A stretch of DNA of 34,002 bases from IMG/VR virus record IMGVR_UViG_2623620506_000009, positions 1 through 34,002 of that record; one strand, 5' to 3'. How positions within the stretch are numbered: the stretch's first letter is position 1; the number at the start of each line of letters is the position of its first letter. The stretch is from a virus. Lineage: Duplodnaviria; Heunggongvirae; Uroviricota; Caudoviricetes. The notes under the pieces were generated by a model. It was not told where the DNA came from. It ran no database searches and worked only from the letters and a program-made list of their open reading frames with translations. Shown here piece after piece: positions 1 through 34,002 of this stretch. A program made the position numbers and the translations under genes.

Positions 1-726
1 TCACTTCGGGTATGGCTGAACCCTGAACAGCTTGGTGTTTAGGCGCTTTTTTGCGCGCTTATTCAGGAATCTGATGTAGCGATACTGATTAAATTTGTGT
101 ACCACGGCCCGCTCCTTATTAGCCCGTAAATACACACCTCGTTGCCCTCCGCGCTTAATCGCGTTCATCGCTATCTCGTGATACCACTCGCCGTCCAGTT
201 CGTAGAACGTGCTTTCGTGGCTGCCTATAAAATCAAAATTCGACGCCTGATATACCACGCCAGCACGTCCGCAGCGTTCATCTGCAAAGGACTGAACCCA
301 CTCCACTGACGGGTACAGTAACCTGATGGTTTTCAGCGCGTAGCTGATGGCCCGTGATTCAGAATTGCGGGGCATGTCGTCGTGTAACCACATGCGGTTC
401 AGTTCCATATAGCTCCGGTTATCCGTTTCCAGCACAACACGACGCCCTGAGTTGGGGTTAAGGGCATATCCCCACTGAAGAACGCCAACCAGGTCACGTC
501 CGCTGAATACGCCCAGATGCAGGTAGGAGTTATTCACAAAACGGCGGGAATAGTGTTTTGTCTGAATGATTGTGCGGGCCAGCCAGCAGGATATGGTTTC
601 AACGCGCAGCTCCTTTGAACCATAGCCAACAATCCGGCCTTCATACTCAATAACGCAGGGTTTTGTCAGAATGCGTGATTTCTTCTCTTTTCCCACAATA
701 CAGCTCCGTGGGATGCTCTTTGGCAT
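1..726 (-). CDS. mom: DNA modification protein Mom (adenine modification, anti-restriction)
   Basis: ATG at 726 (track ORF starts 4 codons upstream at 738); translation [30 protein letters not shown]... matches recalled Mu Mom along its length; stop TGA at 3..1; preceded by overlapping com. Confidence 0.9.
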
Positions 727-832
727 TCGATATGACAATGTAACGTTTACAGCGAGGGCATTTAATTTCTATATGCTTAAAACCTCCTTTAAACAGTAAT
801 TTATTGCAGTTTTTACAGCGAACAGAGTCCAT
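647..832 (-). CDS. com: Com, zinc-finger translational activator of mom
   Basis: ATG at 832 gives 61 aa [15 protein letters not shown]...IKCPRCKR...THSD: CxxC...CxxC zinc finger very similar to recalled Mu Com; its 3' end overlaps the mom start by about 80 nt as in Mu. Confidence 0.85.
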
Positions 833-859: not shown

Positions 860-955
860 AATCGCCCGGAGGGCTGGGGGTATTTAATCACAATCGATGC
901 AAACCGACGATCGATATGATGTTATCGATCGTCATAAACTATACATACTGATTAT
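860..955 (-). promoter_or_regulatory. mom operon control region with ATCGAT/GATC repeats (candidate Dam-methylation-sensitive promoter region)
   Basis: Noncoding gap upstream of com. Three ATCGAT hexamers at 893-898, 910-915, 924-929; two of them contain GATC (909-912, 927-930). Mu Pmom is known to be controlled by Dam methylation of upstream GATC sites. Confidence 0.45.
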
Positions 956-1522
956 TTAATCACCGACAGTTAACGCTCTCACCTCGTCCAATATGGACAG
1001 CCGGGAAAGCTGCTCCTTCATTTCACGCTGGCGCTGATAAATCTCGTCATTGCGATCGACCTGTGCCTGTGCCATTGCTGCTGCCAGTTCTTCCAGTTCC
1101 GGCATCGACAGTTTCACCTGTTGATTATCAGCGTCACCCCACGTCATCTCGTTCCGTGCCGTATCGGATTTCGCCGCCATTACTACCGGATAAAGGCGAG
1201 CCAGTGAGCCGGGGCCAGCGTTCCAGGTACGACCGTTCCATTCGAACGTAAATGGCTGCGCTTCCTGTTCTGCGCGCCATGTCTCTATTTCCCGTTTTTT
1301 GGCATCCTTCGCCGCGGCGATAAGTTCAGGCGTAATGGTGAACGGGGCGATTTCGCCCCATTTGCCACTTTGCAGCTCCTGCCAGATGCGCTGGCCTGTT
1401 TCGGCTGTATCTTCTGCCGTGGCTGTGTAGGGGATAGGGGTATCCATCCCTTCAAACAAAACTTCGCAGTCAATTACGCCGCTCTCGAGATAGCGGGGTT
1501 TTTTGATTTCCTGAATATTCAT
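956..1522 (-). CDS. putative tail fiber assembly/chaperone protein partnered with the Stf-like fiber
   Basis: ATG at 1522 (MNIQEIKKPRY...), 10 nt after the fiber stop with GAGGGA SD overlapping that stop; 188 aa; position and size fit a fiber chaperone; family assignment by eye is weak. Confidence 0.55.
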   Translation of the reverse strand: MNIQEIKKPRYLESGVIDCEVLFEGMDTPIPYTATAEDTAETGQRIWQELQSGKWGEIAPFTITPELIAAAKDAKKREIETWRAEQEAQPFTFEWNGRTWNAGPGSLARLYPVVMAAKSDTARNEMTWGDADNQQVKLSMPELEELAAAMAQAQVDRNDEIYQRQREMKEQLSRLSILDEVRALTVGD

Positions 1523-1532
1523 TTGCAGTCCC

Positions 1533-3824
1533 TCATGCAGCTCTGACAAACAGACCGACCAGTGCGCTGTCACCACGAACGCTACCCGCTGCTCCGTTTA
1601 GTGCAATGTAAGCGCCTGGTAAACTCCATTGCCGACATCCTCTTGTCGTTATTAAAGGCGTTGCTGTGGCAACATTTTCCCTGTCACTTGGAATTGCAAT
1701 GGACAGTGGCGTCAGAGACGCCCCCGGGTAGGCATAACCGCGTGTCATGCTGATATTGGTGTCTCCGTCAGCGGTCCCCTGGTATGCAGCCAGAATCAGT
1801 CCACCGACGTCCGGGTTTCCAATACTTGTTGGAGCAACGCGTGAAGACAAGACGTCAGCAAAATCGACGCCTGTTAAATTCAGCTTTCCCCACTCAGGAA
1901 GCGGGCTGCCAGAGCATCGGGTATGATAAACCTCTCCGTTAACACCATAAAAAGTGACCACTTTAGTCTTGCTATCAGGACTGGCATTGCTGGCAACTGT
2001 ACCGGGGATTTTGATATCAACTATCCCCGTAAAAACAACACCTTTAATAATTGGGTTATACCTGTTAACACCGCCGTATTGAACCACCGCGTATCGACCT
2101 GGATTGGTGCTTTTTACCCATTCTACAAACTCTGTTGGCCCGTTTTCGGAACTAAACGATTTTTCTGAGCGGAAGATAGCTCCGTATCCGAATGCACCGG
2201 GTATTGCTAGGCGGCCTTCGGTACGGTCGTAAATATCCTCCTGCACATCCTTTTGTGCTGCACTGCCCAGCTGTGGCGTCAGATTCGTCCATGTAACCGG
2301 AGCGTAGATATCATCGCCACGAATAGTCATGAGTATCCGCCCGTCTTTTCCAAAAAACAGAACCAGCTTTGTTGCTGTCTGGCTGGTTTTGTCGCCCCAG
2401 TTGTTATCCAGCCAGATAATTTCTGTTATCCCGGTTGTTTCTTCAGTTTGTGTGGAAAAGGTGTAATAGCGTCCCGGACGTTTGTTATGGGTAGCTCTGG
2501 CTACAGTTGTCATGTCGCTGGCGACAATTGAATTACCTCCGGATTTCGTCATTCCATAACCATATGCACCAGGAAGTGCAACACAACCTTCGGTATCGTC
2601 ATAAAGCCATTGCTGGACATCCCTCGTGGCTGCGCTTTTCAGTTCGAGTTCATTGCGCATGGAATCCGCTGTGGTCTGTGCCAGCAGTGAACGGGCTTTT
2701 TCCGACAGAGGAGACAGTGAAACATTCCCGTCCTGATTAAAGCACAGAAGATTATCCGCCCGTTCTTCCAGATTGCTGATTGTCGTTAATACGTCACTGA
2801 GTGGTTGTTTACCCGCCAGCGCGTTAGTGACAGTTGTCGCAAAGTTCGGGTCATTACCCAGCGCCGCTGCCAGCTCGTTCAGCGTGTCCAGGGCTTCCGG
2901 CGACGAGTCAACCAGTGCGGCGAGCAGTTTGCGGACAAATGCCGCGTTCGCGGTTTCCAGACCGACTGCATCGTCCGGTGGGGTTGGTGTGGTTGGCGTG
3001 CCGGTGAACGCCGGGCTGTCCAGTGGCGCTTTTGTTTTCGTCTCGTCCATGACGGTTTTGACAGCCTTTGGTGTGGCTGCCAGTTCTTCGCTGTCGTTGT
3101 CTGTATCACTACAGAGTTGCACCAGGCCTTTTTCTGTCGTGGAAGCATTGCTTCCCTTCAGGTCATCAACTATCCGTTGCGCCTCGTCCTTGTGCTCTTT
3201 CGCGTTCTGCTCGCTTTTGGCAGCCGCTTCGGCGCTGGCTTTTGCCTCGCCGGTCAGCGTTGCGGCATCAGCAAGTTTATCGACCGCTTTCTGGACTATC
3301 TTATCGGCATCTTTGACCGCCTGTTCTGCCCGGGCGGCATTCTGGTTTGTTTCAGAGGCCAGCTTTTCAGCTTTCTGCACATTACTCGCAATTTCTTCTG
3401 CATCCTGCTGTATTTCCCCGGCGAGCGTTTCTGTATCCTGACGGGCCTGTTCAGCAGCGGTGGCATGCTCTCCTGCTTTTTCTGCGCTTTGCTGCGCCTG
3501 TTGCGCCAGCTCTTCGAATTTCTTCAGGGCTTCCGGGCGCAGGTCAATATCGGTTGCGCCCAGAAAATCATTCAGCGAACCGTCCGCTGAATCTTCATAA
3601 ACGCGGATGACACCGATTTCTGAAAGGCGCTGTGTGCTTTGTGTCAGGCGAACGCTGTACACACCCGGCAGAACAGGGAAGTCATATTCCCCGTTCTGTG
3701 TGGTGACATGGCTGAAAACACTTTTCAGAATCCCTGCACGGTTGTGCAGGGAGGTCAGTGTAATGGTTGCGCCGCCCAGCGGTTCTCCCGTGGGCGTTTT
3801 AATCACACCTTTAAGCTGCGGCAT
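1533..3824 (-). CDS. side tail fiber protein, lambda Stf-like (763 aa)
   Basis: N-terminus MPQLKGVIKTPTGEPLGG...VYEDSADGSLNDFL parallels lambda Stf N-terminus; Ala/Glu-rich coiled coil; conserved block ELAATPKAVKTVMDETKTKAPLDSPAFTGTPTTP and SPEALDTLNELAAALGNDPNFATTVTNALAGKQP shared with lambda Stf and P2 H; distinct C-terminal region with three [LI]PGA[YF] repeats. Confidence 0.85.
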   Translation of the reverse strand: MPQLKGVIKTPTGEPLGGATITLTSLHNRAGILKSVFSHVTTQNGEYDFPVLPGVYSVRLTQSTQRLSEIGVIRVYEDSADGSLNDFLGATDIDLRPEALKKFEELAQQAQQSAEKAGEHATAAEQARQDTETLAGEIQQDAEEIASNVQKAEKLASETNQNAARAEQAVKDADKIVQKAVDKLADAATLTGEAKASAEAAAKSEQNAKEHKDEAQRIVDDLKGSNASTTEKGLVQLCSDTDNDSEELAATPKAVKTVMDETKTKAPLDSPAFTGTPTTPTPPDDAVGLETANAAFVRKLLAALVDSSPEALDTLNELAAALGNDPNFATTVTNALAGKQPLSDVLTTISNLEERADNLLCFNQDGNVSLSPLSEKARSLLAQTTADSMRNELELKSAATRDVQQWLYDDTEGCVALPGAYGYGMTKSGGNSIVASDMTTVARATHNKRPGRYYTFSTQTEETTGITEIIWLDNNWGDKTSQTATKLVLFFGKDGRILMTIRGDDIYAPVTWTNLTPQLGSAAQKDVQEDIYDRTEGRLAIPGAFGYGAIFRSEKSFSSENGPTEFVEWVKSTNPGRYAVVQYGGVNRYNPIIKGVVFTGIVDIKIPGTVASNASPDSKTKVVTFYGVNGEVYHTRCSGSPLPEWGKLNLTGVDFADVLSSRVAPTSIGNPDVGGLILAAYQGTADGDTNISMTRGYAYPGASLTPLSIAIPSDRENVATATPLITTRGCRQWSLPGAYIALNGAAGSVRGDSALVGLFVRAA

Positions 3825-4341
3825 CGGGACGCTCCGGCCAGTTGATGGAGTAAAAGGAGGCTTCGTCAGTAACGGTGCTTAAATCCAGTGCCTTTACCGC
3901 TTTGATATATGCCATCCACTGCGTAAGACGGGCTTTATCATCGTCGCTGATGGTGCCCAGCTCCAGCTCGGTTTTCCAGTCGGAGGTGATGTCCTTCGCT
4001 TCATTCAGCATGCTCTGGCGTTTTTTTTCTGCCAGTCGCGAGTAATCAACAGGAACCGGCAGCACTTCGCCGTCTTTGTAATACCAGCAGGCTTCAATGC
4101 CAAAACCTTCCGGCAGTTCATCCACTTCCACAATGGTGAAGCCAGCCGGGTAAAGACGGGACACGTCTTCCGCCATTGAATAAATCACGCCGCTTTCAGG
4201 GTGAATACACAATTTGTATTTCTTCGTGAATTTATCCAGTGATTCATAAAAATCCTGTCCGTCTTCACTGCGGAAATACTGAATATCCTTACCATAAGGC
4301 ATATTTTCCGGGTAATAACGCGAAACGTTTCTGAGTTCCAT
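3811..4341 (-). CDS. tail fiber assembly protein (Mu U / P2 G family)
   Basis: ATG at 4341 with AAGGAG SD (track ORF extends to 4377); 176 aa MELRNVSRYYPENMPYG...; C-terminal DDDKARLTQWMAYIKAVKALDLS resembles the conserved tail-fiber-assembly motif; directly follows the fiber gene. Confidence 0.7.
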   Translation of the reverse strand: MELRNVSRYYPENMPYGKDIQYFRSEDGQDFYESLDKFTKKYKLCIHPESGVIYSMAEDVSRLYPAGFTIVEVDELPEGFGIEACWYYKDGEVLPVPVDYSRLAEKKRQSMLNEAKDITSDWKTELELGTISDDDKARLTQWMAYIKAVKALDLSTVTDEASFYSINWPERPDAAA

Positions 4342-4355
4342 TATTTTCTCCTTAA

Positions 4356-5165
4356 TTAACCTGATACGGTGCGCCATGAACCATTGATATAAATCTGCGC
4401 GGATTTGTAATACACACCACCGATGTTATCCGCCGAACTTCTCCCCGTATCCTGGACATAAATTCCTGACAACTGACAGCCGGAAGGCGCGCGAAACGTC
4501 CAGGTGATTTCGTTGCCACCGGGATTGTGAAACACCTCATTGGTGTACTGAAAATTACGCACAGCGCCGGAATCTGTGGTGTTGATGGTGATATCGCTGG
4601 TGCCATCAAACAGCACATTGTTAATCCTGCGGGCCGTCTGAAGCCGGGTTGCCGTTCCGGCGTTGCCACTGATGTTGCTGATGGTGATATCCGAAGACAG
4701 GGCCATGCCGTTGACCCTGCGGGTATTCGGTACAGCACTATTAGCTTTATTTACCGTGTCACGTAATAAAAGCGCGTCGATAATTTCACCGGCTGTGTTT
4801 TTCCCGAGAATACCGCGCACAAAAGCACTGAGCGGCGTTAATGCCATTGTGTCTTCGCCGGTAAAGTACGGGAATGTATTATTCTGACCGGTTAATCCGG
4901 CAATAGCACTGGCTGAACCACTGTTCGTAATAAACAGTTTTTTCAGCGCCGTCATAATCTGGTTGGTGGTATTTTTATCCGGTTTGATATTTGCCTGCCG
5001 GAGAATTTCCAGCAGTTCAGACTGAATAATATTAAACCAGTCCGGCCCCGGATAAGTGGGCGGAATACCATTCCCGCCTTCGGTGAAATAAAGCGTTGTT
5101 TTGCTTAATTCAGCCGCGACAGGTGGCATTACCGGCACACCCGTCGGATTATCCACATGAAACAT
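4356..5165 (-). CDS. tail fiber protein, Mu S-like N-terminus with P2 H-like C-terminal tip (269 aa)
   Basis: MFHVDNPTG...FTEGGNGIPPTYPGPDWFNIIQSELL resembles Mu S N-terminus; NTFPYFTGEDTMALTPL and C-terminal YKSAQIYINGSWRTV resemble P2 H; GGAGA SD before ATG 5165. Confidence 0.75.
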   Translation of the reverse strand: MFHVDNPTGVPVMPPVAAELSKTTLYFTEGGNGIPPTYPGPDWFNIIQSELLEILRQANIKPDKNTTNQIMTALKKLFITNSGSASAIAGLTGQNNTFPYFTGEDTMALTPLSAFVRGILGKNTAGEIIDALLLRDTVNKANSAVPNTRRVNGMALSSDITISNISGNAGTATRLQTARRINNVLFDGTSDITINTTDSGAVRNFQYTNEVFHNPGGNEITWTFRAPSGCQLSGIYVQDTGRSSADNIGGVYYKSAQIYINGSWRTVSG

Positions 5166-5168
5166 AAA

Positions 5169-5753
5169 TTATTCTCCGGTGTAATAATATTCATATTCCG
5201 TGCCCGCCAGTCGGTAATGCTTCAGCAGGCATTCCAGCTCGCGGGTGCGTTCGCTGATTAATGGCGTCATGACGTCATCAATACAGGTAAACCGTCCGGC
5301 ATCTTTGTCCGGGACTTCCACTTTCAGCAGCCAGCGATACCGCGCCGGATGCAGCGGGTACATGCAGTCACGCAGGCAGTGGTGCGGCAGAACGGCCGTC
5401 ACCTTAATGGTGAAGCCCAGCGCCGCCGCAGCGGCTTCAATCTGCCAGGTTGCCAGCCCACCCTTGCGGCGGTATTTCTCCACCACGGCCCGGCGGCGGG
5501 CTTCCGTTGTGGTGGCGGCAATTCCGCATTCCGGCAGCGCCAGATATTGCTCCCACTCCGGCAGCAGCTGGAGCGTGGTTTCCGGTCGCATCTCCACATG
5601 CAGGCGCGAGGCGTCGTATTCAACGCGGGTTAAACGCTCTGCAAGCGCCCTTAAAAAACGGTTTAAATCTGCATCGTTATCACGCGGCCATGCCTTACCC
5701 CGTGGCATGACCTGTTGCAGTGCGGTCAGCCATTCCGTCACGCTGTGAGCCAT
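5169..5753 (-). CDS. tail/baseplate protein (Mu gp48-like)
   Basis: 194 aa ORF, ATG at 5753, overlaps upstream gene end; syntenic with Mu gp48 immediately upstream of the tail fiber gene. Confidence 0.65.
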   Translation of the reverse strand: MAHSVTEWLTALQQVMPRGKAWPRDNDADLNRFLRALAERLTRVEYDASRLHVEMRPETTLQLLPEWEQYLALPECGIAATTTEARRRAVVEKYRRKGGLATWQIEAAAAALGFTIKVTAVLPHHCLRDCMYPLHPARYRWLLKVEVPDKDAGRFTCIDDVMTPLISERTRELECLLKHYRLAGTEYEYYYTGE

Positions 5754-6814
5754 GTCACCTCCCCGATGGTGATAAGCTCATCCACATCACTGGTGGTGTC
5801 TTCCCCGATGTTGAGGAAGTAATCCGTGATACCGGACGTCATACCGATGGCCGTGCGCAGCGAGGACACCGGCAGCATCTGACCGGGGGCCAGCGTTTTC
5901 TGTAATGCGGTCAGGTTTGCCCGGACGGCGTTCCTGTTCGCCTGGCTGTCCGGTGTCAGACGGATGGACAGATCGACTTTCTTCAGCCTGACCTGTACCG
6001 GCCAGACCTCGATGCCGCCCGGTTTGCCCACCATCACGCCCGTGGCCGGGTGTTTGTGACAGAACAGATACTGCTCCATTGTCTTCAGGTCGTCCCGTGT
6101 GGGGATAATGTCTTCACGGTCATCATAAAGCCATGCCAGCCCGACCGTGCCGGGGCCGTGCCACGCATCCCACGCCCACGCGCGGCTGACGCCCGGCACT
6201 TCACGCGCCCAGATGACGTAATCATGTAGTGCACCGCCCACCGGGGGATTGCGGCGCACATACAGCAGACGGTCCAGCAGCTCTGCGATGGATTCGATGT
6301 CTGCGCCACCGGTGATGCCACTTTCAGTCACCGCGCCGGTGCTGCCCGTTCCGGGTAGCGGGGACAACAGAGTGAGCACGGCACCGGCAGCAAGATTGCC
6401 CGCCACACCGGCTTCTTCAGCCTGCACGATGACGGTGACCTCGCCGTCCTGTACCTCGCCGGATGTGAGTACCTGATACACCTGATTCGTGTCGGACTGC
6501 ATCCGGGTTTCTGCCGGAATGGGGGACTGACTGGTGAAGGTCACCGGCCCGCTGGCAAAGGTGGCCTGCTTGCGGATAACCCCTTCATACGTTGCTGTTT
6601 TGATAATGGTTTCATCATCAGACGTGGTGGACGGGATTATCTGGTCCTTAATCCAGCTCTGATGGTCGTATAAATCCCGGACCTGACTGCTGAATGACAC
6701 GTTCAGCGCCTGCTCAATACTGACAGGCGGCAGCTTTTGCAGGCCGAGTTCATACGCAATATCTTTTTCGCCGTCGGCAATCAGTTTGCCCAGCGTGGGG
6801 ATTTCATACGGCAT
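5738..6814 (-). CDS. baseplate J-like protein (Mu gp47-like)
   Basis: ATG at 6814 with GGGAGG SD (track start 6847 is TTG); 358 aa; size and position match the baseplate J family. Confidence 0.75.
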   Translation of the reverse strand: MPYEIPTLGKLIADGEKDIAYELGLQKLPPVSIEQALNVSFSSQVRDLYDHQSWIKDQIIPSTTSDDETIIKTATYEGVIRKQATFASGPVTFTSQSPIPAETRMQSDTNQVYQVLTSGEVQDGEVTVIVQAEEAGVAGNLAAGAVLTLLSPLPGTGSTGAVTESGITGGADIESIAELLDRLLYVRRNPPVGGALHDYVIWAREVPGVSRAWAWDAWHGPGTVGLAWLYDDREDIIPTRDDLKTMEQYLFCHKHPATGVMVGKPGGIEVWPVQVRLKKVDLSIRLTPDSQANRNAVRANLTALQKTLAPGQMLPVSSLRTAIGMTSGITDYFLNIGEDTTSDVDELITIGEVTWLTA

Positions 6815-7256
6815 TAATGGTGGCCTCCCATCGGCGGGTGATTTCAATTGTGAGCGTGGTTTTGTCCGGGCGGGTTAACACCACCTGAAAGGCAATACGG
6901 TCAGGGACGATGATGCTGGCCGTGACGGTGGCGTTACGGGCGTAACCGGCCCGCAGCAGCGGTTGCATGGACAGCCGCGCGTAATCTTCCACACGCAGGC
7001 GGACATCTTCCGTCAGCTTTTCACGCTCAAGCAGCCACAGGCGGGAACCCCACGAAAAATCGCTGTACGTGTCGCCCGGCCAGCCGCGCGGGTCGCCAGA
7101 GCCGTCAGGAATGACATCATCGTCATCAGCACGGGCATCGGTGAAAAGGCAGATAAGAACCTGAGTGACCAGCCCCTCATCCAGTGAGAGGCCGTTATGG
7201 GTGACGGTGATGTCACCCCGTGAGAGCATGTTATTCCAGCGGATTCCTGTCGTCAT
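6804..7256 (-). CDS. baseplate protein (Mu gp46-like)
   Basis: 150 aa ORF; ATGA start/stop overlap with upstream gene; synteny. Confidence 0.65.
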   Translation of the reverse strand: MTTGIRWNNMLSRGDITVTHNGLSLDEGLVTQVLICLFTDARADDDDVIPDGSGDPRGWPGDTYSDFSWGSRLWLLEREKLTEDVRLRVEDYARLSMQPLLRAGYARNATVTASIIVPDRIAFQVVLTRPDKTTLTIEITRRWEATINAV

Positions 7257-14296: not shown

Positions 14297-14481
14297 TATT
14301 TTTTCCCTCTGTTTTTGTTGCTATTTTTCGGAAGCTCGGTTATTTCCACATCTCCCTCGGCTTCACGGCGCAGCCAGTAAGCGCAGACGTCGAGACGTTC
14401 CCCTTCCGGGGATAAATGCGCGCCATCCGGTTTACGGACACGGACGTTTTCCCGCGCTGGCTTAATCAGTTTCTGTTCCAT
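14296..14481 (-). CDS. small conserved protein (DUF2635-like)
   Basis: ATG at 14481 with GGGGTG SD (ATG at 14496 has no SD); 61 aa MEQKLIKPARENVRVRKPDG...; sits between gp38-like and sheath genes. Confidence 0.45.
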   Translation of the reverse strand: MEQKLIKPARENVRVRKPDGAHLSPEGERLDVCAYWLRREAEGDVEITELPKNSNKNRGKK

Positions 14482-15073
14482 CGTCACCCCGTACATGGAT
14501 CACGTCGTTAATTTCAGTGTGTTCACCGCTACGCAGCGTTGCCCCGAGGCGCAGGAAGTCCGGGAGCGCGGCGAGTTCAATCTCTTCATCCAGCTGAAAT
14601 TCCTGCTCCCACGTCACCGCCCACATGGTGACGCCCAGCCCGTCGAGGCTGGCGGAGTAAATGTTGTCTGCCCGCACATCAGCAGCCATGCGTTCAGCCC
14701 CCATGCCCGCTGTGGCATCCGACGACAGCAGGCGTTTAATCACCTTTCCGGCCAGTACTTCACAGCGCACGTCGCGGGAGTACCCCCACGAATCCGTCGC
14801 CATGATGTAAGCCACCCAGGTAACCAGACCGGACAGCCCGCCGCGCGGGTTGATATCCCGGACACGCAGGGCCGCTACTCGGATACAGCCGGTACGACCG
14901 GACAGATAGCGTTTGACTTCCTCCGGGCTGTTGAACTGGCCGATGTGACGCTCCACCACGTCAGCCCGGTCAGGGGTTTTCCCCTGAAGTGCTGTTTTCA
15001 GCCAGGCCACAATGCGCTCTGCGGCCGCAACGGTGCTCCCCGGTGTGCGCAGTTCAGGGCGTTGTTCTGTCAT
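14462..15073 (-). CDS. virion protein (Mu gp38-like)
   Basis: 203 aa; ATGA overlap with upstream gene; synteny. Confidence 0.65.
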   Translation of the reverse strand: MTEQRPELRTPGSTVAAAERIVAWLKTALQGKTPDRADVVERHIGQFNSPEEVKRYLSGRTGCIRVAALRVRDINPRGGLSGLVTWVAYIMATDSWGYSRDVRCEVLAGKVIKRLLSSDATAGMGAERMAADVRADNIYSASLDGLGVTMWAVTWEQEFQLDEEIELAALPDFLRLGATLRSGEHTEINDVIHVRGDDGTETD

Positions 15074-15612
15074 GGCAGAACCTCCTTCCAGAAATGACTG
15101 ATAACCTGTTGCAGCTCCTGCTGGTTGGCAGAAGACAGCCCCAGAAATTCACGTTGTGGAATATTCATCATGCGGTTATGTGCGCCGACGGTCTGCCAGA
15201 CCGGATATTTCAGCGCCCGCCCGAAACACTGCGAGATAAGCCGTTTGTGGGCGCTGACCGGCACACTGCCGGAAAAGCCGTCATTCATGATGCGGGCATC
15301 ATCCAGCGGTGAACCGATACGCACCACGCGGTTTTCCACGATGTACTGGATACTCTCCAGCAGATGGCCTTCACCGCGCAGCAGACTCTGGTTGCCGTGG
15401 CGGGTCTTTTTGTACCCGTCAGACCAGTCCGGCCAGCGTTCGCCACCCGGACTGGTTTTCTCATCGATGATGCGGCGGCGGGTCTGTGATTCCACCACCG
15501 CACCGATGCTCTCCAGCAGCTCTGCCTGCAATGAACCATCTGCCAGCTTTTCAACGGCACGGCGGATATCCTCCAGCCGCTGGTCACCGCTGACCTGTAC
15601 AGAAATCCCCAT
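15070..15612 (-). CDS. phage virion morphogenesis protein (Mu G/tail-completion family)
   Basis: ATG at 15612 (track start 15615 is GTG); 180 aa MGISVQVSGDQRLEDIRRAVEKLADGSLQ...; overlaps upstream stop. Confidence 0.7.
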   Translation of the reverse strand: MGISVQVSGDQRLEDIRRAVEKLADGSLQAELLESIGAVVESQTRRRIIDEKTSPGGERWPDWSDGYKKTRHGNQSLLRGEGHLLESIQYIVENRVVRIGSPLDDARIMNDGFSGSVPVSAHKRLISQCFGRALKYPVWQTVGAHNRMMNIPQREFLGLSSANQQELQQVISHFWKEVLP

Positions 15613-16049
15613 CACAGCACCCCTTTCAGGTTGTTACGGGTGAACAGCCGGGCATTGGCACCCACCACAATGATTTTCCCGTGGTCGGTTTCTGCCGGGG
15701 TGGCATACGTCGGCAGGCCCAGGTCACGGGTGCCGTTCGCCATCTCACGCAGGGTTTTAATGGCGTCGTCGTAGCGTTTCTGGATCAGCTCCGTGATTTG
15801 ATTGTCACGCTCTGACAACCAGTAAAACGCCAGCGATACCGCCACGCGTTGCAGCGGGCGCGGGATTTCCGTCACCCCCAGCGGCAGCTGGTAGCGGCGG
15901 GACAGAAACGAATCAATTTCCGCTTCGGCATCACTGATGGCCTGACGGATTTTGTCTTCATCCAGTTCGTTGGTTTCCCGGTTAATCGCCATGTTCCAGA
16001 CAAGATTGCCGTCCGCGCGTAACAGGTCTTCCTGCGTGATATACCCCAT
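15612..16049 (-). CDS. head-tail connector protein (Mu gp36/J-like)
   Basis: 145 aa; ATGA overlap; synteny after major head gene. Confidence 0.65.
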   Translation of the reverse strand: MGYITQEDLLRADGNLVWNMAINRETNELDEDKIRQAISDAEAEIDSFLSRRYQLPLGVTEIPRPLQRVAVSLAFYWLSERDNQITELIQKRYDDAIKTLREMANGTRDLGLPTYATPAETDHGKIIVVGANARLFTRNNLKGVL

Positions 16050-26556: not shown

Positions 26557-27104
26557 ACAGCAATTCTCCCGCTGTTTCGTGCGCGGGCATACGCACTGGT
26601 CAGTGCATCATAGCCGCGCAGTTCCCGCCCGGATGGGCTTACAGGTAAAGGCACACCATGTCGGGCAAAGGCTTCACGGATGCAGCGCATGTGCCACTGT
26701 TTGAGCGTTTCGAGCACAACCTGCAACGATTCCCCGTGACACCATGCCAGCGTGGAAACACCCTGACCGCCATTACGTCTGGCCGTCAGGCGTTCAACGT
26801 ATTTGTCCAGCGCGGCGTCGCTGATATCGGATACGAAACCATCAAGAAACATCTGCTGCCAGATTTTATAAATCTTCTCGCGCGGTGTGACATGCCCCTT
26901 AAAGCGACGGCGGGGATGTTTATTCTGCTTTTTAAAACCGCGCTCTTTCATGGCATCGAGCACTTGTTCCAGTTGTGCAACGGACAGCTCGCGGCAACTG
27001 GTTTTGCCCGTGCACTGCACCAGAAAGGCGCGGTAAGTGTCATCGTCGAGGTGCAACTCCCGGCGGGCAACATGAATTAATTTAATCAGGGATGTGCGAC
27101 TCAT
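26553..27104 (-). CDS. gemA: GemA-like early protein (Mu gp16)
   Basis: ATG 27104 with AAGGAG SD (track ORF extends upstream); 183 aa MSRTSLIKLIHVARRELHLDDDTYRAFLVQ...; same length as Mu GemA; position before mor. Confidence 0.8.
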   Translation of the reverse strand: MSRTSLIKLIHVARRELHLDDDTYRAFLVQCTGKTSCRELSVAQLEQVLDAMKERGFKKQNKHPRRRFKGHVTPREKIYKIWQQMFLDGFVSDISDAALDKYVERLTARRNGGQGVSTLAWCHGESLQVVLETLKQWHMRCIREAFARHGVPLPVSPSGRELRGYDALTSAYARARNSGRIAV

Positions 27105-27471
27105 TTTGCCCCATCTCCTTAATGCAGTGTTTTTCGACCCATGCCACACGAGCAGAATTCAGGTGGCATCTGTCATGTAGGCATTCATCATGGTAGTGCA
27201 CGTTATCTACATTAAATGGCAGGGATTCATCCAGCCCACTCGCGACAAAATCCGCATGTAATTGTTCTAGCGCAGCCTCGCTGTCTGCTCCGATTGATTC
27301 AAAATAGTCATAAACATTGGCGCATAATCCGACTCCCCGAATAAACCCTTCCCCTTCCGTTTCTTGCGCTCCGTTTTTTAACCACTGGTTATAGGCGACA
27401 TAAAAATCATAAAGATGTTTTCTGGTGCTGGCGGATGCGGATTTAATTTCATTTTTCTCTGCGTTATTCAT
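27082..27471 (-). CDS. hypothetical early protein (129 aa), Cys/His-rich C-terminus
   Basis: ATG 27471 with GAGG SD; C-terminal HYHDECLHDRCHLNSARVAWVEKHC suggests metal binding; no family recognised. Confidence 0.55.
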   Translation of the reverse strand: MNNAEKNEIKSASASTRKHLYDFYVAYNQWLKNGAQETEGEGFIRGVGLCANVYDYFESIGADSEAALEQLHADFVASGLDESLPFNVDNVHYHDECLHDRCHLNSARVAWVEKHCIKEMGQNESHIPD

Positions 27472-27646
27472 TTCTTAATACCTCTTCGCAATAAAAGATT
27501 TCATTGGGATAATGTTTTTGTATGCGCTCCATCACCTGCATACATGCCTGCTCGGTGGGCCAGATTTTTTCCGTTACAGGGATGGCATCACAGGCATCAT
27601 TCCCGCAGGTGCCAACCAGCAGGACAAAGCCAATTGACTTAATCAT
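27464..27646 (-). CDS. small Cys-rich protein with N-terminal signal-like hydrophobic segment (60 aa)
   Basis: ATG 27646 (track ORF extends to 27742 with non-protein-like extension); MIKSIGFVLLVGTC... resembles a signal peptide/imperfect lipobox; 4 further Cys. Confidence 0.4.
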   Translation of the reverse strand: MIKSIGFVLLVGTCGNDACDAIPVTEKIWPTEQACMQVMERIQKHYPNEIFYCEEVLRNE

Positions 27647-28181
27647 GTTCACTGACTTCCTGTGTTGCGGCCGGAGCTGGTGAATAATCAAGAATGAGAT
27701 AGCGCATGACGTGGTCGGTGATATTCCAGCCACTGGAACCACAAATAAAGCGCCCCATCCGGATATCGATATACGCCATCACAAAACGGGGCATTCCCTG
27801 TTTGCACATCTCGTCATCCACTTCAGCAACGATGTAAACCGACTCGCAGGTCAGTACGCCTGTCGCAAATTCTTTTGCCAGTGCCGGAATGGCATTGCCT
27901 TCCAGCCAGGGCAAAGAGCGGCGGAACGCGCACCATTGAGCATCATCAACATCGGGGTGTTCCGTTGTTGCGTTTCGTCTTACTGGCGGCGTCGGACGAG
28001 GGCGCGGAACGTCATAAAATCCGTTGCATTCAGTGAGAACTCCGGCATCAACCGCATCACGCAGGAAATACACCATTGAGGAAGGTGGCATCTTCATTTT
28101 TTCAGCCAGAACGCCACAGGTCAGACGCCCGTAAGCCCGTAGTAATGTGCTGACACCGCTCAGAATTTTTGCATCAATCAT
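27639..28181 (-). CDS. hypothetical early protein (180 aa), possible N-terminal winged-helix domain
   Basis: ATG 28181; 97-nt gap after gam; N-terminal LRAYGRLTCGVLAEKMKMPPSSMVYFLRDAVDAGVL resembles a wHTH; no family recognised. Confidence 0.55.
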   Translation of the reverse strand: MIDAKILSGVSTLLRAYGRLTCGVLAEKMKMPPSSMVYFLRDAVDAGVLTECNGFYDVPRPRPTPPVRRNATTEHPDVDDAQWCAFRRSLPWLEGNAIPALAKEFATGVLTCESVYIVAEVDDEMCKQGMPRFVMAYIDIRMGRFICGSSGWNITDHVMRYLILDYSPAPAATQEVSEHD

Positions 28182-28278
28182 TTTTATTTCTCAGATATCA
28201 GATTCAGGCGCGAGCAATCCCCTGACGCATCGCGCCATAATTAAAAGAAAGTGAATTAATTAAATATGCGTGGTGGTA

Positions 28279-28803
28279 TTAAATACCGGCTTCCTGTTCA
28301 AACGGAATAATAGAAAAATCTTCAATACCTGATTTGACTGTAATTCCGGCAACACCTGCGACCGCTTTCGGTTCCAGTAAAATCGCCTCCTTGTTGATTT
28401 CCTGTTTCGTGCGAATAAAGCGTTGCAGGCCAAGACGCTCCAGCGTTTCCATCACCGCATCCATGCCGCGAATACTTACCGATGGTGGGCGCTGACGCCA
28501 TGACACATCACCGGTTACCAGGTTTGCCGTCTTCACCTTGCCGCCGTTCGTCAGTTCGTCACGGTTCGCTTCACACCATCCCTGAACGCCTTTTGAAAGG
28601 GTTTCGATACTGGTTTTAAGGGGCGCAATCTGTGAGGCGTATTTCTCAGTAATTTCAGCGATAGCGTCATTCATTTCCGTTTCAAGTCGTGCCGCTTCGC
28701 GTTGCAGGTCACCAATCCGGCGAATATCACACACCACGGCATCGCGGGATTGAGGAACATAAGCTGCTGCGGCACTCTTGATTCGTTTTGCTGGTTTAGC
28801 CAT
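28279..28803 (-). CDS. gam: host-nuclease inhibitor protein Gam (Ku-like DNA end-binding protein)
   Basis: 174 aa MAKPAKRIKSAAAAYVPQ...GVQGWCEANRDELTNGGKVKTANLVTGDVSWR...SGIEDFSIIPFEQEAGI; near-identical to recalled Mu Gam; AGGAG SD. Confidence 0.92.
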   Translation of the reverse strand: MAKPAKRIKSAAAAYVPQSRDAVVCDIRRIGDLQREAARLETEMNDAIAEITEKYASQIAPLKTSIETLSKGVQGWCEANRDELTNGGKVKTANLVTGDVSWRQRPPSVSIRGMDAVMETLERLGLQRFIRTKQEINKEAILLEPKAVAGVAGITVKSGIEDFSIIPFEQEAGI

Positions 28804-28823
28804 ATAAATAAAGCTCCTGTTAA

Positions 28824-29123
28824 TTAATATTCGCTGTATACAATGCTGGATACAGCACGATTGCTTAATTCCATCTTTTGGGCAATGACATGAATAGCCA
28901 GCCCTTCTTTATAAAGTTCACGACACAAATATTTGTCGTGCTCACTGACCCGGTAAACACACAACGATATTCCGTGCCTTCTGGCATGTGCCTGTAGAGC
29001 GGTTGGGGCAACGTTCAGTTTTTTCGCCATTTCTTCGACGGTCATTTTTCCGACACTGGCTTCGATAAATTCCCGGTCTTCGCGTGACCAGCGTTTACGT
29101 TTACACATCATTCCGGTCACCAC
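28824..29123 (-). CDS. hypothetical small DNA-binding protein (HTH-like)
   Basis: GTG 29123 directly after upstream stop, or ATG 29111; MTVEEMAKKLNVAPTALQAHARRHGIS looks like a helix-turn-helix; start ambiguous. Confidence 0.5.
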   Translation of the reverse strand: MVTGMMCKRKRWSREDREFIEASVGKMTVEEMAKKLNVAPTALQAHARRHGISLCVYRVSEHDKYLCRELYKEGLAIHVIAQKMELSNRAVSSIVYSEY

Positions 29124-29543
29124 TCAGTACAACAGGGGGTCGCGCAGTGATGCCGGAATATGCCGCAGCGATAACTGAACCGCTTTCAGGGCAAGGGAAG
29201 AATACGTTCCCTGCGCCCAGCCTTTCGCCATTCGCCGGTAATCGCGCCAGATATTCTGCCACTGCTCCCGTGCGTCCGGGTCTGACGCGCTGATGTATTC
29301 GCGGTCCATGACGTATTCCCATAAATCCTCGTTAAACGCACCGCCAAACGTGATGGCATTAGAGATGTTTTCGCCACAATAACGCGCACAAATGCTGTAA
29401 TGGTCAAATGTAATCAGATAAGTAGTTTCACCATGCTCATAAACTTTGCGGGTGAAAATAAACTCGCGTAATTCTCCTGGATTGTTATTACGCATTTTAA
29501 TTCGAATTAATGCCTGAATTTCGTTTCTGATTTTGGCGTTCAT
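29124..29543 (-). CDS. hypothetical early protein (139 aa)
   Basis: ATG 29543 with AAGGA SD; no family recognised. Confidence 0.55.
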   Translation of the reverse strand: MNAKIRNEIQALIRIKMRNNNPGELREFIFTRKVYEHGETTYLITFDHYSICARYCGENISNAITFGGAFNEDLWEYVMDREYISASDPDAREQWQNIWRDYRRMAKGWAQGTYSSLALKAVQLSLRHIPASLRDPLLY

Positions 29544-29557
29544 TATCAGCGTTCCTT

Positions 29558-29821
29558 TCAGTGACGTGTTCCTTCAACTGTCGTTTTTGTGACACTGCCA
29601 CCCGTGATGACGCCGTCATTTTTCAGAATTTCAATGGCCTCATGGGTTGACTCGCAAACAATATCCCGACTTTTTTCCAGAACCAGTAACGCTACCATGC
29701 CAGCGAGTGTACATTCATCGCCGTCCAGCTCTGCACTGTGTTCTACGTTAATACTGGTACGTAAACGCTGCCCTTTAACTTCAGATGTCGCATTTTTGAT
29801 TTCGATAATGACTTTTGCCAT
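29558..29821 (-). CDS. hypothetical early protein (87 aa)
   Basis: ATG 29821 with GAGGA SD (track ORF extends to 29875); no family recognised. Confidence 0.5.
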   Translation of the reverse strand: MAKVIIEIKNATSEVKGQRLRTSINVEHSAELDGDECTLAGMVALLVLEKSRDIVCESTHEAIEILKNDGVITGGSVTKTTVEGTRH

Positions 29822-29853
29822 TTTGTTATTCCTCACAAATAAATAAGCCGTTA

Positions 29854-30081
29854 TTAACGCCAGATAATCTGACAACCATTAAGACGGGCCGTCCATACTG
29901 AACGGGCAACCCCTGATTTATGCTCCATAATTCTGATGGCGTTCCTGACCAGCTCCGGTGGCGGGCAGGTAATTTCAAGCACCGGGCGGGCTACGCCCAG
30001 CCAGGATTCGTTGACGTGGCTGCCGCGCTCCTGTAACCAGCTCTTTACTTCCGTCGCCATTTTGATATTCCGTGACATCAT
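29854..30081 (-). CDS. hypothetical early protein (75 aa) at the position of Mu kil
   Basis: ATG 30081 with AGGAGA SD, 14 nt after the B stop; position equivalent to Mu kil but homology not verifiable by eye. Confidence 0.5.
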
Positions 30082-30094
30082 GATTTCGCTCTCC

Positions 30095-31033
30095 TTACGT
30101 GCGCAGCAGGGTTGAAATATCAACGTCCAGGTCTAATTCACGGAAAGCCTGACGCAGATAATCTTCATTAACACGTTCACCTTTGCCGTGGGCAGTCATG
30201 GCCGCAAGGCGCAGCGAGTGGTTCAGGATGCGAAGCGCACCTGGTTTTTGTGCAATCTGCTGTAATAATTCCCGCTCGTTTTCGCCGGTAATTTGCCAGG
30301 CATCCGCAATGGCTTTTACATCGTCAATTTTGGTTTTATTAATTGCCGTCCGCTTTGCAATACGGGAAAACAGGCGGGCAAATTCAACCGTTCTGTTACC
30401 ACCGGTCATGTTTGAATAAACACGGTGATTCCCCATCAGAACAAGGCCAATACGGGCAGACTCCTGTAACAGGCGGAGTTCTTCCAGAACCTCAGCGCCA
30501 AGATGATCAGCTTCGTCGATAATGACCAGCCCCTGCGTACCTTCAAGGCGGCGTCGCAAAGCGCGGGAGAGCGGCCCTTTGCGGCGCGGTGCGTCATTCA
30601 TTCCCAGCTCATAAGCCAGTTCAGTGAGACATTCCAGAACACTGGCGCAGGATGGTGTAATGGTGATCATCCAGACATTGTTATTGGTGCGACGAAATTC
30701 GCGGGCCGCTTCAGTTTTCCCCACACCTGGATTACCGCAGATAACAGAAATACTTTCAGTCAGGCTGGCAAAACGCATACTCGTCCAGATTTGACGTGCT
30801 GTTCTGGTTTCCACAAAACGCGGGGGTTCTGGCAGCTCTGCGGCGCGGTGATAGTTCTCCAGCCAGCGTTCCAGTGTCTGCGCGACACGGTCATTGTCGC
30901 CGTTGTACTTGTTATTCACGAATGCGCTTAACGTTCCTGCGGCCACGCCGGACTCGCGGGCAATTTGTGCATAAGTTGTTTTTTCACTTTCTACAAGCGT
31001 GCGCAGTCCTGTGCGAATATCGGAAATATTCAT
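30095..31033 (-). CDS. B: transposition ATPase / target DNA activator B (MuB)
   Basis: 312 aa; [15 protein letters not shown]..., Walker A GNPGVGKT, Walker [11 protein letters not shown]; near-identical to recalled Mu B; GAGG SD. Confidence 0.93.
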
Positions 31034-31071
31034 CTGAATAACCTCGTAATTAAATTTTGTTTAAACGTTAA

Positions 31072-33060
31072 TTAAATGGCTTTTTTACGTCTGTTCTGTT
31101 CCAGAATATCCAGCGAATGATTCAGATATTCATCACGATCAGTTTCATATTCATCATCGGGTTCCTGGTATTTCACCTGCACCGTGTTACCGGAAGGCCG
31201 GAAAATACCAACAACCCTTGATTCTGGCGCTGCTGGTTCGGCTATCTGCGGCAGCAGTTCAGCAACTTCCAGCGCGTCCATTTGCTTCTGCGCCTTAATG
31301 GCTGCTTTAGTTGCAGATTTCAGTTGTTTCTGGCGGCGGCGATATTCACGACCTGCCGCAGCATCATTAAATGCAACAGGGGCCAGACATTCCGCTTCAC
31401 AGATAAACCGACCGTCCAGGGTGTAGCAATAAACCGTGCTGTGTAGCTGCTGTGGATCAAACCTGACCACAACTTTTTTCACTCCGGCATTCATTAATGC
31501 CATGTTGTAATAAACGTTTTTCGCGCCTTTAAGGGAGCCGCCAACTTTAAGCGTAAACTCGCCTTTGCGTGAAACGTTCACCGCCTCAGCAGGCAGTAAC
31601 AGCATCCGTTTTTGTTCTTCGGTTGGCTTACGCACAATCGTTCTGGCGTATTCACGCTCGAAAACATCATCAAACGAGAGTTTGCCCCCGCACATTTCTG
31701 TTTCACGTCCTGTTCTGGCATTGAACATCGCCACACCTTCGGCAAGGGTTTTCAGAAACAGCTCTGCATCAACAGCACGGTCGCCATAGTTATCAGGTTT
31801 TGCCTGCGGATTTGGCCCCGTATATGCACCAGCCAGTGCCGGATGCTTATCAACGTATTCCTCAAGCCCACCAACACCGAAAGCACGTTCAACAGGTTTT
31901 GCCTGGCCCCAGCCTTTACCGGCAACAACGCTTGTCCAGTGCATTTTCGCGCCCATCAGTAAAAACAGTCCCTTTGGATCGTCCTCTTTCACCTTAAAGC
32001 GGTAGCGATTGGGCGCGCCCCCCGTCAGCCATTTATTCGCTGCACCACGGGTGTTATCAATGGTGATGTGAAAATCCTCCGGGATGCCGTAGCGTGTCAC
32101 CACATCCATGAACGAGAGGCGAATTGAATCGATGTTCTCGCTTACATCGCAGCGCCAGCCCAGAATTTTTCGGGTTTTCACATCCTGCCAGAACCATGTT
32201 TTCGGGCGGATCACATCGCCGTTAAACCAGCGTACAAAGACGTTATGCAGATAACCGTCGCCGTTGATCCACTGCATGGCGTCCAGGTGTTCCACAGTTC
32301 GCTGCTGTGCCGGTATCAGATGCATCAGTGCATGTTCACCTTCACGGCAGGCAACAACCATTGCCTCATCCAGTTGCTGAATCCGGCGAAAGGCCGTGGC
32401 ACGGGAGGGAATACTCCAGCCATGCTCGCGGGCTGCCAGCTCCAGACGCTCATAACATTTGCGGAAGGCGGGTTTTTCTGGTCGCAGATAATCTGCAATC
32501 AGAAACTGCCAGGCATCCTCGTCAAATTCACTTTTGTGAACATTGCGACGAGATGCACCACGTCCATCAACAAGTGCTGCCGCCCAGTCAGGCTTCGCAA
32601 ACTTCTGTACCTGGTAATACTTGTCCCGCAAAGTGGATGCGCTGACCTGGTAATGCCCTGCAACGGTCGCAAAAGCCGTTTTCGTTGAAATCCCCTGGTT
32701 CAGCATTTCGTCTGCAGCCTGAACCGCAGGCAACCATTTTTCAGCAAGTCTGCGCTGGGAATTGCTGGCGTTATCCCATTTGCTCCACAGTGCCTCACGA
32801 TCATAATCATGGGCTTCCAGCGTGGGGCGGGCGATTTCAAAACGGCCCTGGCTTGTTTCAATACCTCCTTGTTGCAATAAAATTTCAGCACGTAATGCAA
32901 CAGGAAATGATTTGATATTGAATTCAAATGATACACCTTTAGTACCTGTAACTTGCCTAAACACCCAGCCTTCTCTTTGTGCCTTACGTGTAATGTTAGT
33001 TGCTTGCTTTGGCAAACCAGCAAAACCAAGCAATTCTTTCGCTGTATACCACTCTTTCAT
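31072..33060 (-). CDS. A: DDE transposase A (MuA), D108-type N-terminus
   Basis: 662 aa; from about residue 70 ([26 protein letters not shown]...) matches recalled Mu A through the catalytic core and C-terminus (...[19 protein letters not shown]); N-terminal 70 aa differ from Mu as in D108. Confidence 0.95.
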
Positions 33061-33067
33061 AGCGCAC

Positions 33068-33289
33068 CTAGTATCGAGATGGCCAGATATCCTGCGGTGT
33101 CATTCCCAATGCATCTGCAATGATTTTTTCCGCTTTTGGGTATCTCTTATCTAAAGCATTTTTTAATGTTGAAGACGAAAGATGATTCGATCTTCCCAAT
33201 TCGGCCAGTGACATATTGCGTTTTCGTAACTCAGCAACGATGTCAGCCCGATGCCAGTCTTGGCGGTTAGCTCTTTTATTCATATGCAT
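33068..33289 (-). CDS. ner: Ner, early transcriptional repressor
   Basis: ATG at 33289 with AAGGA SD (track start 33331 is TTG); 73 aa ...[28 protein letters not shown]...IWPSRY; conserved DWHRAD and IWPSRY motifs as in Mu Ner. Confidence 0.85.
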
Positions 33290-33477
33290 TTCATGTAATC
33301 CTTTCAGATTCACCCGTGAGCTACTCTGCAAAGTAGCTCACGGCATATCGAGCAATGTACAGTGAAATCTTTTTGGAATCAATGATGATTTGAAAAGATT
33401 TTACAGCATCTTGATTAATTATTTGAAACTTAAAGTAATTTTTTTCAACTTTAATGAAATCATTGGGATTTTAAACA
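33290..33477. promoter_or_regulatory. divergent c / ner control region (early promoter and operators)
   Basis: AT-rich 188-bp gap between divergent repressor and ner genes; 11-bp perfect inverted repeat CGTGAGCTACT-N6-AGTAGCTCACG (33315-33342); second dyad AAATCTTTT/AAAAGATTT (33365-33373 / 33393-33401). Confidence 0.55.
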
Positions 33478-34002
33478 ATGTCTTTTGAAATCAAAGAATG
33501 GTTTAATGCGAAAGAGCTGGAGGGGATGCCTGGTGTGCCAAAGTTGGCGACTAACATTACCAGAAAGGCTGTGGCAGAAAATTGGGTAAAACGTCAACGT
33601 CATGGTGGAAAAGGTGTGGCTTATGAATATCACATCAACAGCTTACCAGAAGAAACCCAAAGGGCTATTAAGGGAGCATCATTTTCTTATACCCCTCCAG
33701 TACATGTACCAAGCCATCATACAGTTGATGAGCGGCTAGTTTATGCAATGAGTTTCTTAACGCCTGATGAGCAAGCTGCGGCTATTGAGATCATTCGTGT
33801 GGCAGGAATTAAAGGTCTTATGCCGACAATTGTTAGCAAAGATAAAGCGTTAGAAGCATTGGGGGTTACTGTGGAACAACAAAGAACCCTACAGACACTT
33901 CAAGCATTACCGCCGGAAAAAGCGAGAGAGATTTTATCTCAGTATGAAAATAAGGAACACAACCTCCCGGCAAGAGAAGACGATGTAAAAAAAGCTGTAT
34001 AA
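33478..34002 (+). CDS. c: repressor c (Repc-like), D108-type
   Basis: 174 aa; N-terminal [30 protein letters not shown] resembles the transposase N-terminal DNA-binding domain ([30 protein letters not shown]) as in Mu; only plus-strand gene; stop at window end. Confidence 0.8.
   Translation: MSFEIKEWFNAKELEGMPGVPKLATNITRKAVAENWVKRQRHGGKGVAYEYHINSLPEETQRAIKGASFSYTPPVHVPSHHTVDERLVYAMSFLTPDEQAAAIEIIRVAGIKGLMPTIVSKDKALEALGVTVEQQRTLQTLQALPPEKAREILSQYENKEHNLPAREDDVKKAV

Follow-up and report, generated by a model that had tools for sequence, protein, structure and literature searches.

The 34,002-nucleotide (nt) stretch of viral DNA analyzed here (Caudoviricetes; positions 1 to 34,002 of IMG/VR record IMGVR_UViG_2623620506_000009, hereafter the window) belongs to a Mu-type transposable prophage of Escherichia coli in which two tail fiber genes, each followed by a gene for a fiber chaperone, occupy the interval 956-5165. 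An earlier note, written from the letters of the sequence, had described two complete and co-oriented fiber and chaperone modules at this place, where Mu carries its invertible G segment. The four open reading frames (ORFs) were confirmed at these coordinates on the minus strand, as are all genes of the window. Hidden Markov model (HMM) and BLAST searches with the four proteins, together with matches in Pfam, PHROG and the Protein Data Bank (PDB), bear out the modular arrangement and the descriptions that the note had given to the genes. Following gp47 and gp48, the order is fiber 1, a Caudo_TAP chaperone (chaperone 1), fiber 2, a DUF4376 chaperone (chaperone 2), com and mom (table 1). The window is identical to contig LCVG01000042.1 of NCBI assembly GCA_001637625.1 over the 5753 nt compared.

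The interval is tightly packed. Fiber 1 starts 3 nt after gp48, chaperone 1 starts 14 nt past the fiber 1 stop and is preceded by a strong Shine-Dalgarno sequence, the ATG of fiber 2 at 3824 gives a 14-nt overlap with the end of chaperone 1, and chaperone 2 starts 10 nt past the fiber 2 stop. A scan of the interval found no promoter-like sites on the coding strand, and the terminator-like hairpins within it were weak only and lay inside coding sequence. The four genes resemble the last part of a tail operon. Constitutive production of both fibers, as the earlier note had proposed, is the natural reading of this operon-like packing; the dual receptor specificity that it attached to this proposal we only infer.

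The N-terminus of fiber 1 is related to that of Mu S. Residues 1-81 match the Mu S N-terminus (phmmer, PDB 5yvq/9ki1, E 6.9e-20), identity to Mu S over the first 100 residues is 44%, and the gene lies directly after gp48, the two features that mark a Mu S-type baseplate anchor. At the other end of the protein, residues 212-269 match the C-terminus of the phiTE short tail fiber (PDB 9cuy, E 9.6e-14), and this tip also matches the end of Mu S, weakly. Fiber 1 is covered over its full length by PHROG 1833 (“tail fiber protein”, E 1.9e-106) and belongs to a large family of full-length, 253-331 amino acid (aa) “phage tail proteins” of E. coli, Salmonella and Shigella. The existence of this family and the conserved tip led us to reject the idea that fiber 1 is a truncated Mu S. 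Judged by these homologies, it is a complete short fiber whose N-terminal anchor is of the Mu S type and whose C-terminus forms a small tip domain. In Mu itself, a gp48 loop serves as the attachment point of the S N-terminus (PMC11915804), and by analogy gp48 is the likely docking partner of fiber 1.

Chaperone 1 is a member of the Mu U/lambda Tfa family, with a Pfam Caudo_TAP domain (E 2.4e-20; 73.4 bits against a cut-off of 22.1), a match to PHROG 136 (E 2.5e-55) and 24-29% identity to Mu U and U'. Its true start is the ATG at 4341, on which gene callers concur and which has AAGGAG 7 nt upstream; an ATG at 4377 is not the start. Chaperone 2 contains Pfam DUF4376 (E 9.5e-17; 61.8 bits against a cut-off of 25) and matches PHROG 1141 (E 1.5e-84). 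Independent gene calls agree on the ATG at 1522 as its most likely start, giving 188 aa, and the GTG at 1576 in the mechanical ORF list over-extends the gene. Proteins with DUF4376 are required fiber chaperones in Alteromonas phage V22 and Campylobacter CJIE1 (PMC10579305, PMC7882524). Each of the two chaperones thus carries the domain of its family and is encoded immediately downstream of the fiber it would serve.

Fiber 2 is a long chimeric protein. Its N-terminus contains the collar domain of Stf-type fibers, Pfam phage_tail_N (PF08400; E 1.8e-26), at 93.2 bits against a gathering cut-off of 26.6, and matches two solved structures, PDB 9e7m (Ur-lambda Stf residues 4-92, E 6.5e-9) and PDB 7kjk (the gp40 collar spike of the Vibrio myophage XM1, E 6.3e-10). 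We refer to this N-terminal domain as StfN. The amino-acid composition of residues ~100-230 suggests a coiled coil, which is followed by a Phage_fiber_2 repeat (PF03406; residues 228-267, E 1.8e-15), and the shaft region matches Mu S residues 99-154. Farther along, a domain of ~120 residues is duplicated (window 1890-2642; 31% identity, E 3e-13), giving two knob-like domains at residues ~395-515 and ~520-645 that precede a foot domain at ~670-763. The protein as a whole matches PHROG 2636 (E 2e-182).

Structure prediction was informative for only one of the two tips. An AlphaFold2 model of the fiber 2 fragment 376-763 had a mean predicted local distance difference test (pLDDT) score of 63.2 and resolved three ordered domains with pLDDT 70-85, whereas the monomer model of fiber 1, built from a 30-sequence alignment, reached a mean pLDDT of 48.9, too low for a fold search. 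Foldseek searches with the fiber 2 fragment returned phi812 baseplate chains (9euf) and the R2 pyocin fiber 6cl6, with low template modeling (TM) scores. The last ~245 residues of fiber 2 are 84-93% identical to 416-aa E. coli fibers that have a P2-H-type anchor (PF12571), so the same tip works on a different anchor. By these sequence matches, with the predicted fold serving as support only, the fiber 2 tip is of the P2/R-pyocin kind. The earlier description of fiber 2 as lambda Stf-like consequently holds for the N-terminal anchor and fails for the tip and for the chaperone, which is a DUF4376 protein.

Table 1. Features of the baseplate-to-mom region of the window
Feature	Coordinates	Strand	Evidence
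gp47	5738-6847	-	Baseplate_J
gp48/YmfQ, baseplate wedge protein, 194 aa	5169-5753	-	Pfam Phage_Mu_Gp48, E 5.9e-32
Fiber 1, short tail fiber, 269 aa	4356-5165	-	PHROG 1833; PDB 5yvq/9ki1, 9cuy
Chaperone 1, Mu U/lambda Tfa family, 176 aa	3811-4341	-	Caudo_TAP; PHROG 136
Fiber 2, long chimeric fiber, 763 aa	1533-3824	-	PF08400; PF03406; PHROG 2636
Fiber 2 N-terminal anchor, residues ~1-95	3540-3824	-	lambda StfN-type collar domain
Fiber 2 shaft	3024-3527	-	Ala/Glu/Gln-rich segment (residues ~100-230) and Phage_fiber_2 repeat
Fiber 2 distal receptor-binding part	1536-2642	-	two duplicated knob-like domains and C-terminal foot domain
Chaperone 2, DUF4376 tail fiber chaperone, 188 aa	956-1522	-	DUF4376; PHROG 1141
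Intergenic region with clustered GATC sites of the Mu mom promoter region	860-955	-	alignment with Mu gin-end-to-com interval
com	647-832	-	Pfam Zn_ribbon_Com
mom	1-726	-	Pfam Mom, E 2.4e-75

Inversion system and origin of the late region

A DNA-inversion switch is absent from the interval. A tblastn search with Mu Gin over the whole 34-kb window found no Gin homolog (best E 2.9). As a positive control, the same query recovers Gin homologs (76-78% identity) from unrelated IMG/VR loci. These loci have convergent chaperone pairs, as expected, and the recovery indicates that the search has power. The gix pattern had 0 matches at ≤3 mismatches. Exact inverted repeats in 860-5300 were no longer than 11 nt, which is the commonest longest value among 100 composition-matched random sequences (range 10-15) and hence not beyond chance, and the best imperfect inverted pair was 27 nt with 70% complementarity. 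The near-identical prophage of strain STEC383 has no recombinase annotation. Unlike the Gin/gix-type invertible segments (Mu G, P1 C and e14 P), the region contains neither an adjacent serine invertase nor flanking inverted crossover sites, and it lacks two oppositely oriented fiber/chaperone sets sharing one constant N-terminus: the minus strand encodes both sets, and the two fibers have separate N-termini. The 12 sequenced copies of the prophage align collinearly at every base, with no difference in orientation. The absence of both a Gin invertase and flanking inverted repeats, noted at first sight of the sequence, was in this way upheld.

The prophage is a hybrid. Its early region (window 26605-34002) shares 88-91% nucleotide identity with Mu, D108 and SfMu (megablast), com-mom shares 89% with the same phages, and the Mom protein is 96% identical to Mu Mom. 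Between these regions the similarity is of a different order: gp48 is 31% identical to Mu gp48 at the protein level, and the best match of the late region is Klebsiella phage Kp4866-3, with 67% over part of the baseplate region. The similarity of fiber 1 to Mu S ends at about residue 100, short of the position of the G-segment boundary, and Mu-level DNA similarity resumes in the GATC cluster, with a match to the last ~30 nt of Mu gin. From these comparisons, the whole late region (~860-26600), fibers included, is of a different lineage than Mu, and the absence of Gin and the G segment is thus part of a wider absence, that of every Mu structural gene. The proposal that a lambdoid fiber module replaced gin was too narrow, because the entire structural module differs from that of Mu.

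The window contains the early-gene set of a Mu-type transposable phage, with Pfam matches for MuA (DDE_2, E 2e-136), MuB (Phage-MuB_C, E 3.1e-33), the repressor (HTH_Tnp_Mu_1, E 3.6e-44), Gam (E 8.7e-44) and Mor (E 3.6e-30), and also gpT, sheath and tube; copies of the prophage lie at many unrelated insertion sites. The window is bounded exactly by the stop codon of mom on one side and by the end of the repressor gene on the other, and it therefore excludes the Mu ends. The most likely start of mom is the ATG at 726 and not the TTG at 738 of the mechanical ORF list. In the position of Mu gp38, between the terminator-like and sheath genes, is a 203-aa protein (window 14462-15073) with no Pfam family and no significant match to a solved structure.

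Conservation of anchors and exchange of tips

The arrangement of short fiber, Tfa, PF08400 fiber and DUF4376 protein occurs well beyond this prophage. It is present in the Stx2e phage phiP27 (L54-L57), where it follows Mu-type baseplate genes, and in tail1-4 of Escherichia phage Rac-SA53. Mu-type E. coli prophages with com-mom have it as well, as do non-Mu prophages that end at DUF4376 beside host genes. Of 5426 complete E. coli genomes, 42 contain the junction of chaperone 1 and StfN at ≥80% coverage. Among related IMG/VR loci of sufficient length, both modules are present in 16 of 16 and Gin in 0 of 16. Standard annotation pipelines already name all four genes. The layout has been known in GenBank since phiP27, and Mu-type prophages with it are numerous. 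What had appeared to be a local novelty is therefore a conserved four-gene cassette of many E. coli temperate myophages with Mu-type baseplates, although a search of the literature on PF08400, DUF4376, phiP27 and Mu-like prophage fibers did not find the dual cassette described as a unit.

The prophage itself is widely distributed. In the assembly collection, 89 blocks contain a protein identical to fiber 1, and in the 12 copies read (L013-L024) fiber 1 is 100% identical in at least 10 different flanking chromosomal contexts; the STEC383 copy, for example, sits inside potE. Identical copies at many sites look like the pattern left by a recently active transposable phage. One copy (L022, 13278-16810) is inserted within another prophage, where its neighbors are lambda-type head genes (Phage_cap_E, HDPD, Peptidase_S49 and portal).

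We counted variation among 10 near-identical copies at different insertion sites (L015-L024). Across these, gp48, fiber 1, chaperone 1, com and mom together have 0-3 nucleotide differences, and nearly all of the 89-150 differences fall in residues 332-762 of fiber 2 (window 1536-2830) and residues 48-105 of the DUF4376 protein (1208-1381). The fiber 2 differences are mainly in two blocks, residues 384-449 and 554-670, of which all four combinations were seen, and many of the changes are synonymous. The fiber 2 ORF is intact in 12 of the 12 copies examined, and the variation fits a recombination signature in intact ORFs. A diversity-generating mechanism was considered and rejected, given the block structure, the many synonymous changes and the four combinations.

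Comparison with more distant relatives separates the ends of the two fibers. Where gp47 and gp48 are the same (99-100%), the fiber 1 anchor is 96-99% and StfN 100% identical, and tips and chaperones are sometimes replaced. Where gp47 is ~31% identical, the fiber 1 anchor is undetectable and StfN falls to 33-38%, yet tips and chaperones retain high identity (fiber 1 tip 84-96%, chaperone 1 87-90%, fiber 2 shaft up to 97%). Both fiber N-termini are anchors bound to the baseplate lineage, and tips and chaperones are exchanged between lineages. Since StfN tracks the baseplate lineage, fiber 2 can be argued to be a real virion component with a docking partner of its own, and the split between anchors and tips argues against docking of fiber 2 on the distal part of fiber 1.

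Other relatives have remodeled versions of the region. In E. coli STEC719 (L006, 1457-4183) the fiber 2 position is split into a 301-aa StfN-anchored protein, a 100-aa protein, a 456-aa SGNH/GDSL hydrolase and a 50-aa protein, which replace the fiber tip and DUF4376 and may constitute an esterase-type receptor-binding module. Phage esterases act on O-antigen, and this general knowledge of esterases hints that the fiber 2 position may target variable surface polysaccharide. In E. coli 54214 (L009, 3328-5384) YmfQ is enlarged to 324 aa and an extra 352-aa gene precedes fiber 1. Two further loci (L025 and L030) have additional copies of the fiber 2 shaft and tip segments, with fibers of ~1000 aa as estimated from the ~3.1 kb spacing between StfN and DUF4376.

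Proposed display of the two fibers

We consider it probable that this is a dual-fiber cassette without an inversion switch, both fibers of which are mounted on the same virion. Under this proposal, both fibers would be made in every late cycle and mounted on one particle at two different docking sites. Fiber 1 would be the conserved baseplate fiber, seated on the gp48 loop as is Mu S, its tip folded by the Mu-U/lambda-Tfa-type chaperone. By analogy with Mu S it probably binds the lipopolysaccharide (LPS) core, and its invariance within the lineage fits a conserved receptor of this kind. Fiber 2, its tip folded by the DUF4376 chaperone, would be a long, fast-diversifying fiber of first contact, as is Stf in Ur-lambda. 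Host range would then be broadened by simultaneous display and tip recombination, not by Gin-type phase variation. As to where fiber 2 docks, the neck, as for XM1 gp40, appears somewhat more likely than a ring near the baseplate. The fuller version of the proposal, with an S-type fiber on gp48, an Stf-type collar fiber at a second site, possibly the neck, and tip recombination in place of Gin phase variation, we advance tentatively, as a possibility that falls a little short of probable.

Several points weigh against the proposal of joint display. On a contractile tail, the ring that the lambda collar clasps would be hidden by the sheath, so the docking site of fiber 2 has to be another one; when the adaptor (window 15612-16049), the terminator (15070-15615) and the protein in the gp38 position were compared with solved structures, there was no match to XM1, and the adaptor's weak match to Mu gp36 was the sole match among the neck proteins searched. 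Some relatives (L009 and L028) have lost distal fiber 2 and DUF4376, leaving an StfN stub beside com, or carry pseudogenes; from such losses, fiber 2 may be dispensable. The confidence of the fiber 1 monomer model is too low to contribute, a search of 50,697 phage records yielded no isolated phage close to the late region, and in this prophage and its close relatives the display of the fibers is predicted from the genes.

These losses could also be taken to mean that fiber 2 and its chaperone are passengers from a lambdoid prophage that are not assembled, with fiber 1 alone functional. The Stf N-terminal domain is indeed best known from the siphophage lambda, where it clasps a tube ring that a sheath would cover, truncated fiber 2 genes occur in some relatives, and the guanine-cytosine (GC) content of 956-5165 (0.48-0.55) is below that of the baseplate genes (0.57-0.61). 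We nevertheless regard passenger status as unlikely. StfN is 100% conserved with the baseplate lineage and falls to 33-38% in step with it, just like the fiber 1 anchor, at least three phage backbones share the conserved cassette, 12 of 12 near-identical copies have an intact ORF and vary by many synonymous changes among others, and the myophage XM1 mounts fibers by a homologous domain. The same domain binds ring proteins of the particle in both solved cases (lambda and XM1), which also speaks against a single branched or serial fiber, in which fiber 1 would be a baseplate adaptor and fiber 2 would be attached to fiber 1 or to its bound chaperone. Such an assembly would suit the constant adjacency and order of the two modules; other phages are known to have receptor-binding complexes that branch (PMC10408124), and the Mu chaperone was reported to remain bound to the fiber (PMC7882524). 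However, fiber 1 has its own chaperone and its own tip, related to the ends of Mu S and the phiTE short fiber, and StfN does not co-vary with distal fiber 1: in UMNF18 the distal part of fiber 1 is replaced and StfN is still 100% identical, and in the divergent lineages the fiber 1 tip and chaperone 1 are 84-96% identical against 33-38% for StfN. A branched fiber is accordingly one we doubt.

Most improbable by far is that host range is switched in some other way, either by an invertase that a resident prophage supplies in trans to cryptic sites or by differential expression of the modules. Invertases of the Pin/Gin type are frequent on other prophages of E. coli strains, and genes of this kind, 76-78% identical to Gin, were found in unrelated loci. 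A target is what the interval fails to offer, as the modules are on the same strand with no inverted repeat above chance and no gix-like site, and 12 of 12 sequenced copies are collinear in the same orientation. Differential expression is likewise at odds with an interval that has no promoter-like site on the coding strand and weak terminator-like sites only. Display of both fibers on one virion thus remains the reading that we prefer.

The Mu early-region and com-mom “chassis” also circulates in E. coli with a different structural module, one in which host range would be set by a two-fiber cassette and not by the textbook invertible G segment. The contrast between anchors that stay with their lineage and tips and chaperones that are freely exchanged offers a ready rule by which host range could be predicted or engineered in this group, which includes relatives of Shiga toxin (Stx) phages. 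The cassette is otherwise ordinary, being present in phages published since 2002; the point of wider interest is where a collar domain of the lambda Stf type docks on a sheathed tail. Collar docking at an undescribed site of a contractile tail, if it occurs, would extend very recent structural work on the domain.

Comparison with known systems

The closest parallels are phiP27 and Rac-SA53, which have the same gene order after Mu-type baseplate genes, no invertase, and a DUF4376 protein 80-85% identical to that of the prophage. Compared with Rac-SA53, moreover, the fiber 1 tip is 85% identical to that of tail1 and the fiber 2 shaft 97% identical to tail3. Unlike the prophage, neither phiP27 nor Rac-SA53 is a Mu-type transposable phage, both having annotated attR/attB sites, and the loci read contained neither com nor mom. 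Their anchors also differ, with the fiber 1 anchor undetectable and StfN 37-38% identical; gp47 of phiP27 is ~30% identical, and a baseplate homolog was not detected in Rac-SA53.

The Mu G segment shares with the cassette its position between gp48 and com-mom, a chaperone of the U/U' family and an S N-terminus (residues 1-100) 44% identical to that of fiber 1, and the prophage has kept com, mom and the mom promoter region. The prophage differs in having no gin, no 34-bp inverted repeats and no second set in opposite orientation, and its second fiber has another type of anchor and another family of chaperone.

Fiber 2 resembles Ur-lambda Stf, an accessory long fiber that speeds first contact, in its N-terminal PF08400 collar domain of ~95 residues and the predicted coiled-coil shaft that follows. 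The collar of lambda consists of 12 StfN copies located where gpV meets gpM (PMC12617516). Lambda is a siphophage, however, whose collar clasps exposed gpV/gpM rings, and its Stf is served by a Caudo_TAP chaperone instead of DUF4376 and does not have the P2/R-pyocin kind of tip seen here. That tip, the distal ~245 residues, is what fiber 2 has in common with the P2 H and R2 pyocin fibers, from which it differs in its anchor (PF08400 as opposed to PF12571). For a contractile tail the nearest precedent is Vibrio phage XM1, in which six gp40 trimers bind the neck through a homologous N-terminal domain (bioRxiv 10.1101/2021.12.18.469577). Although gp40 is not part of a dual cassette beside baseplate genes, it indicates that this domain is able to mount fibers on a myophage, at the neck.

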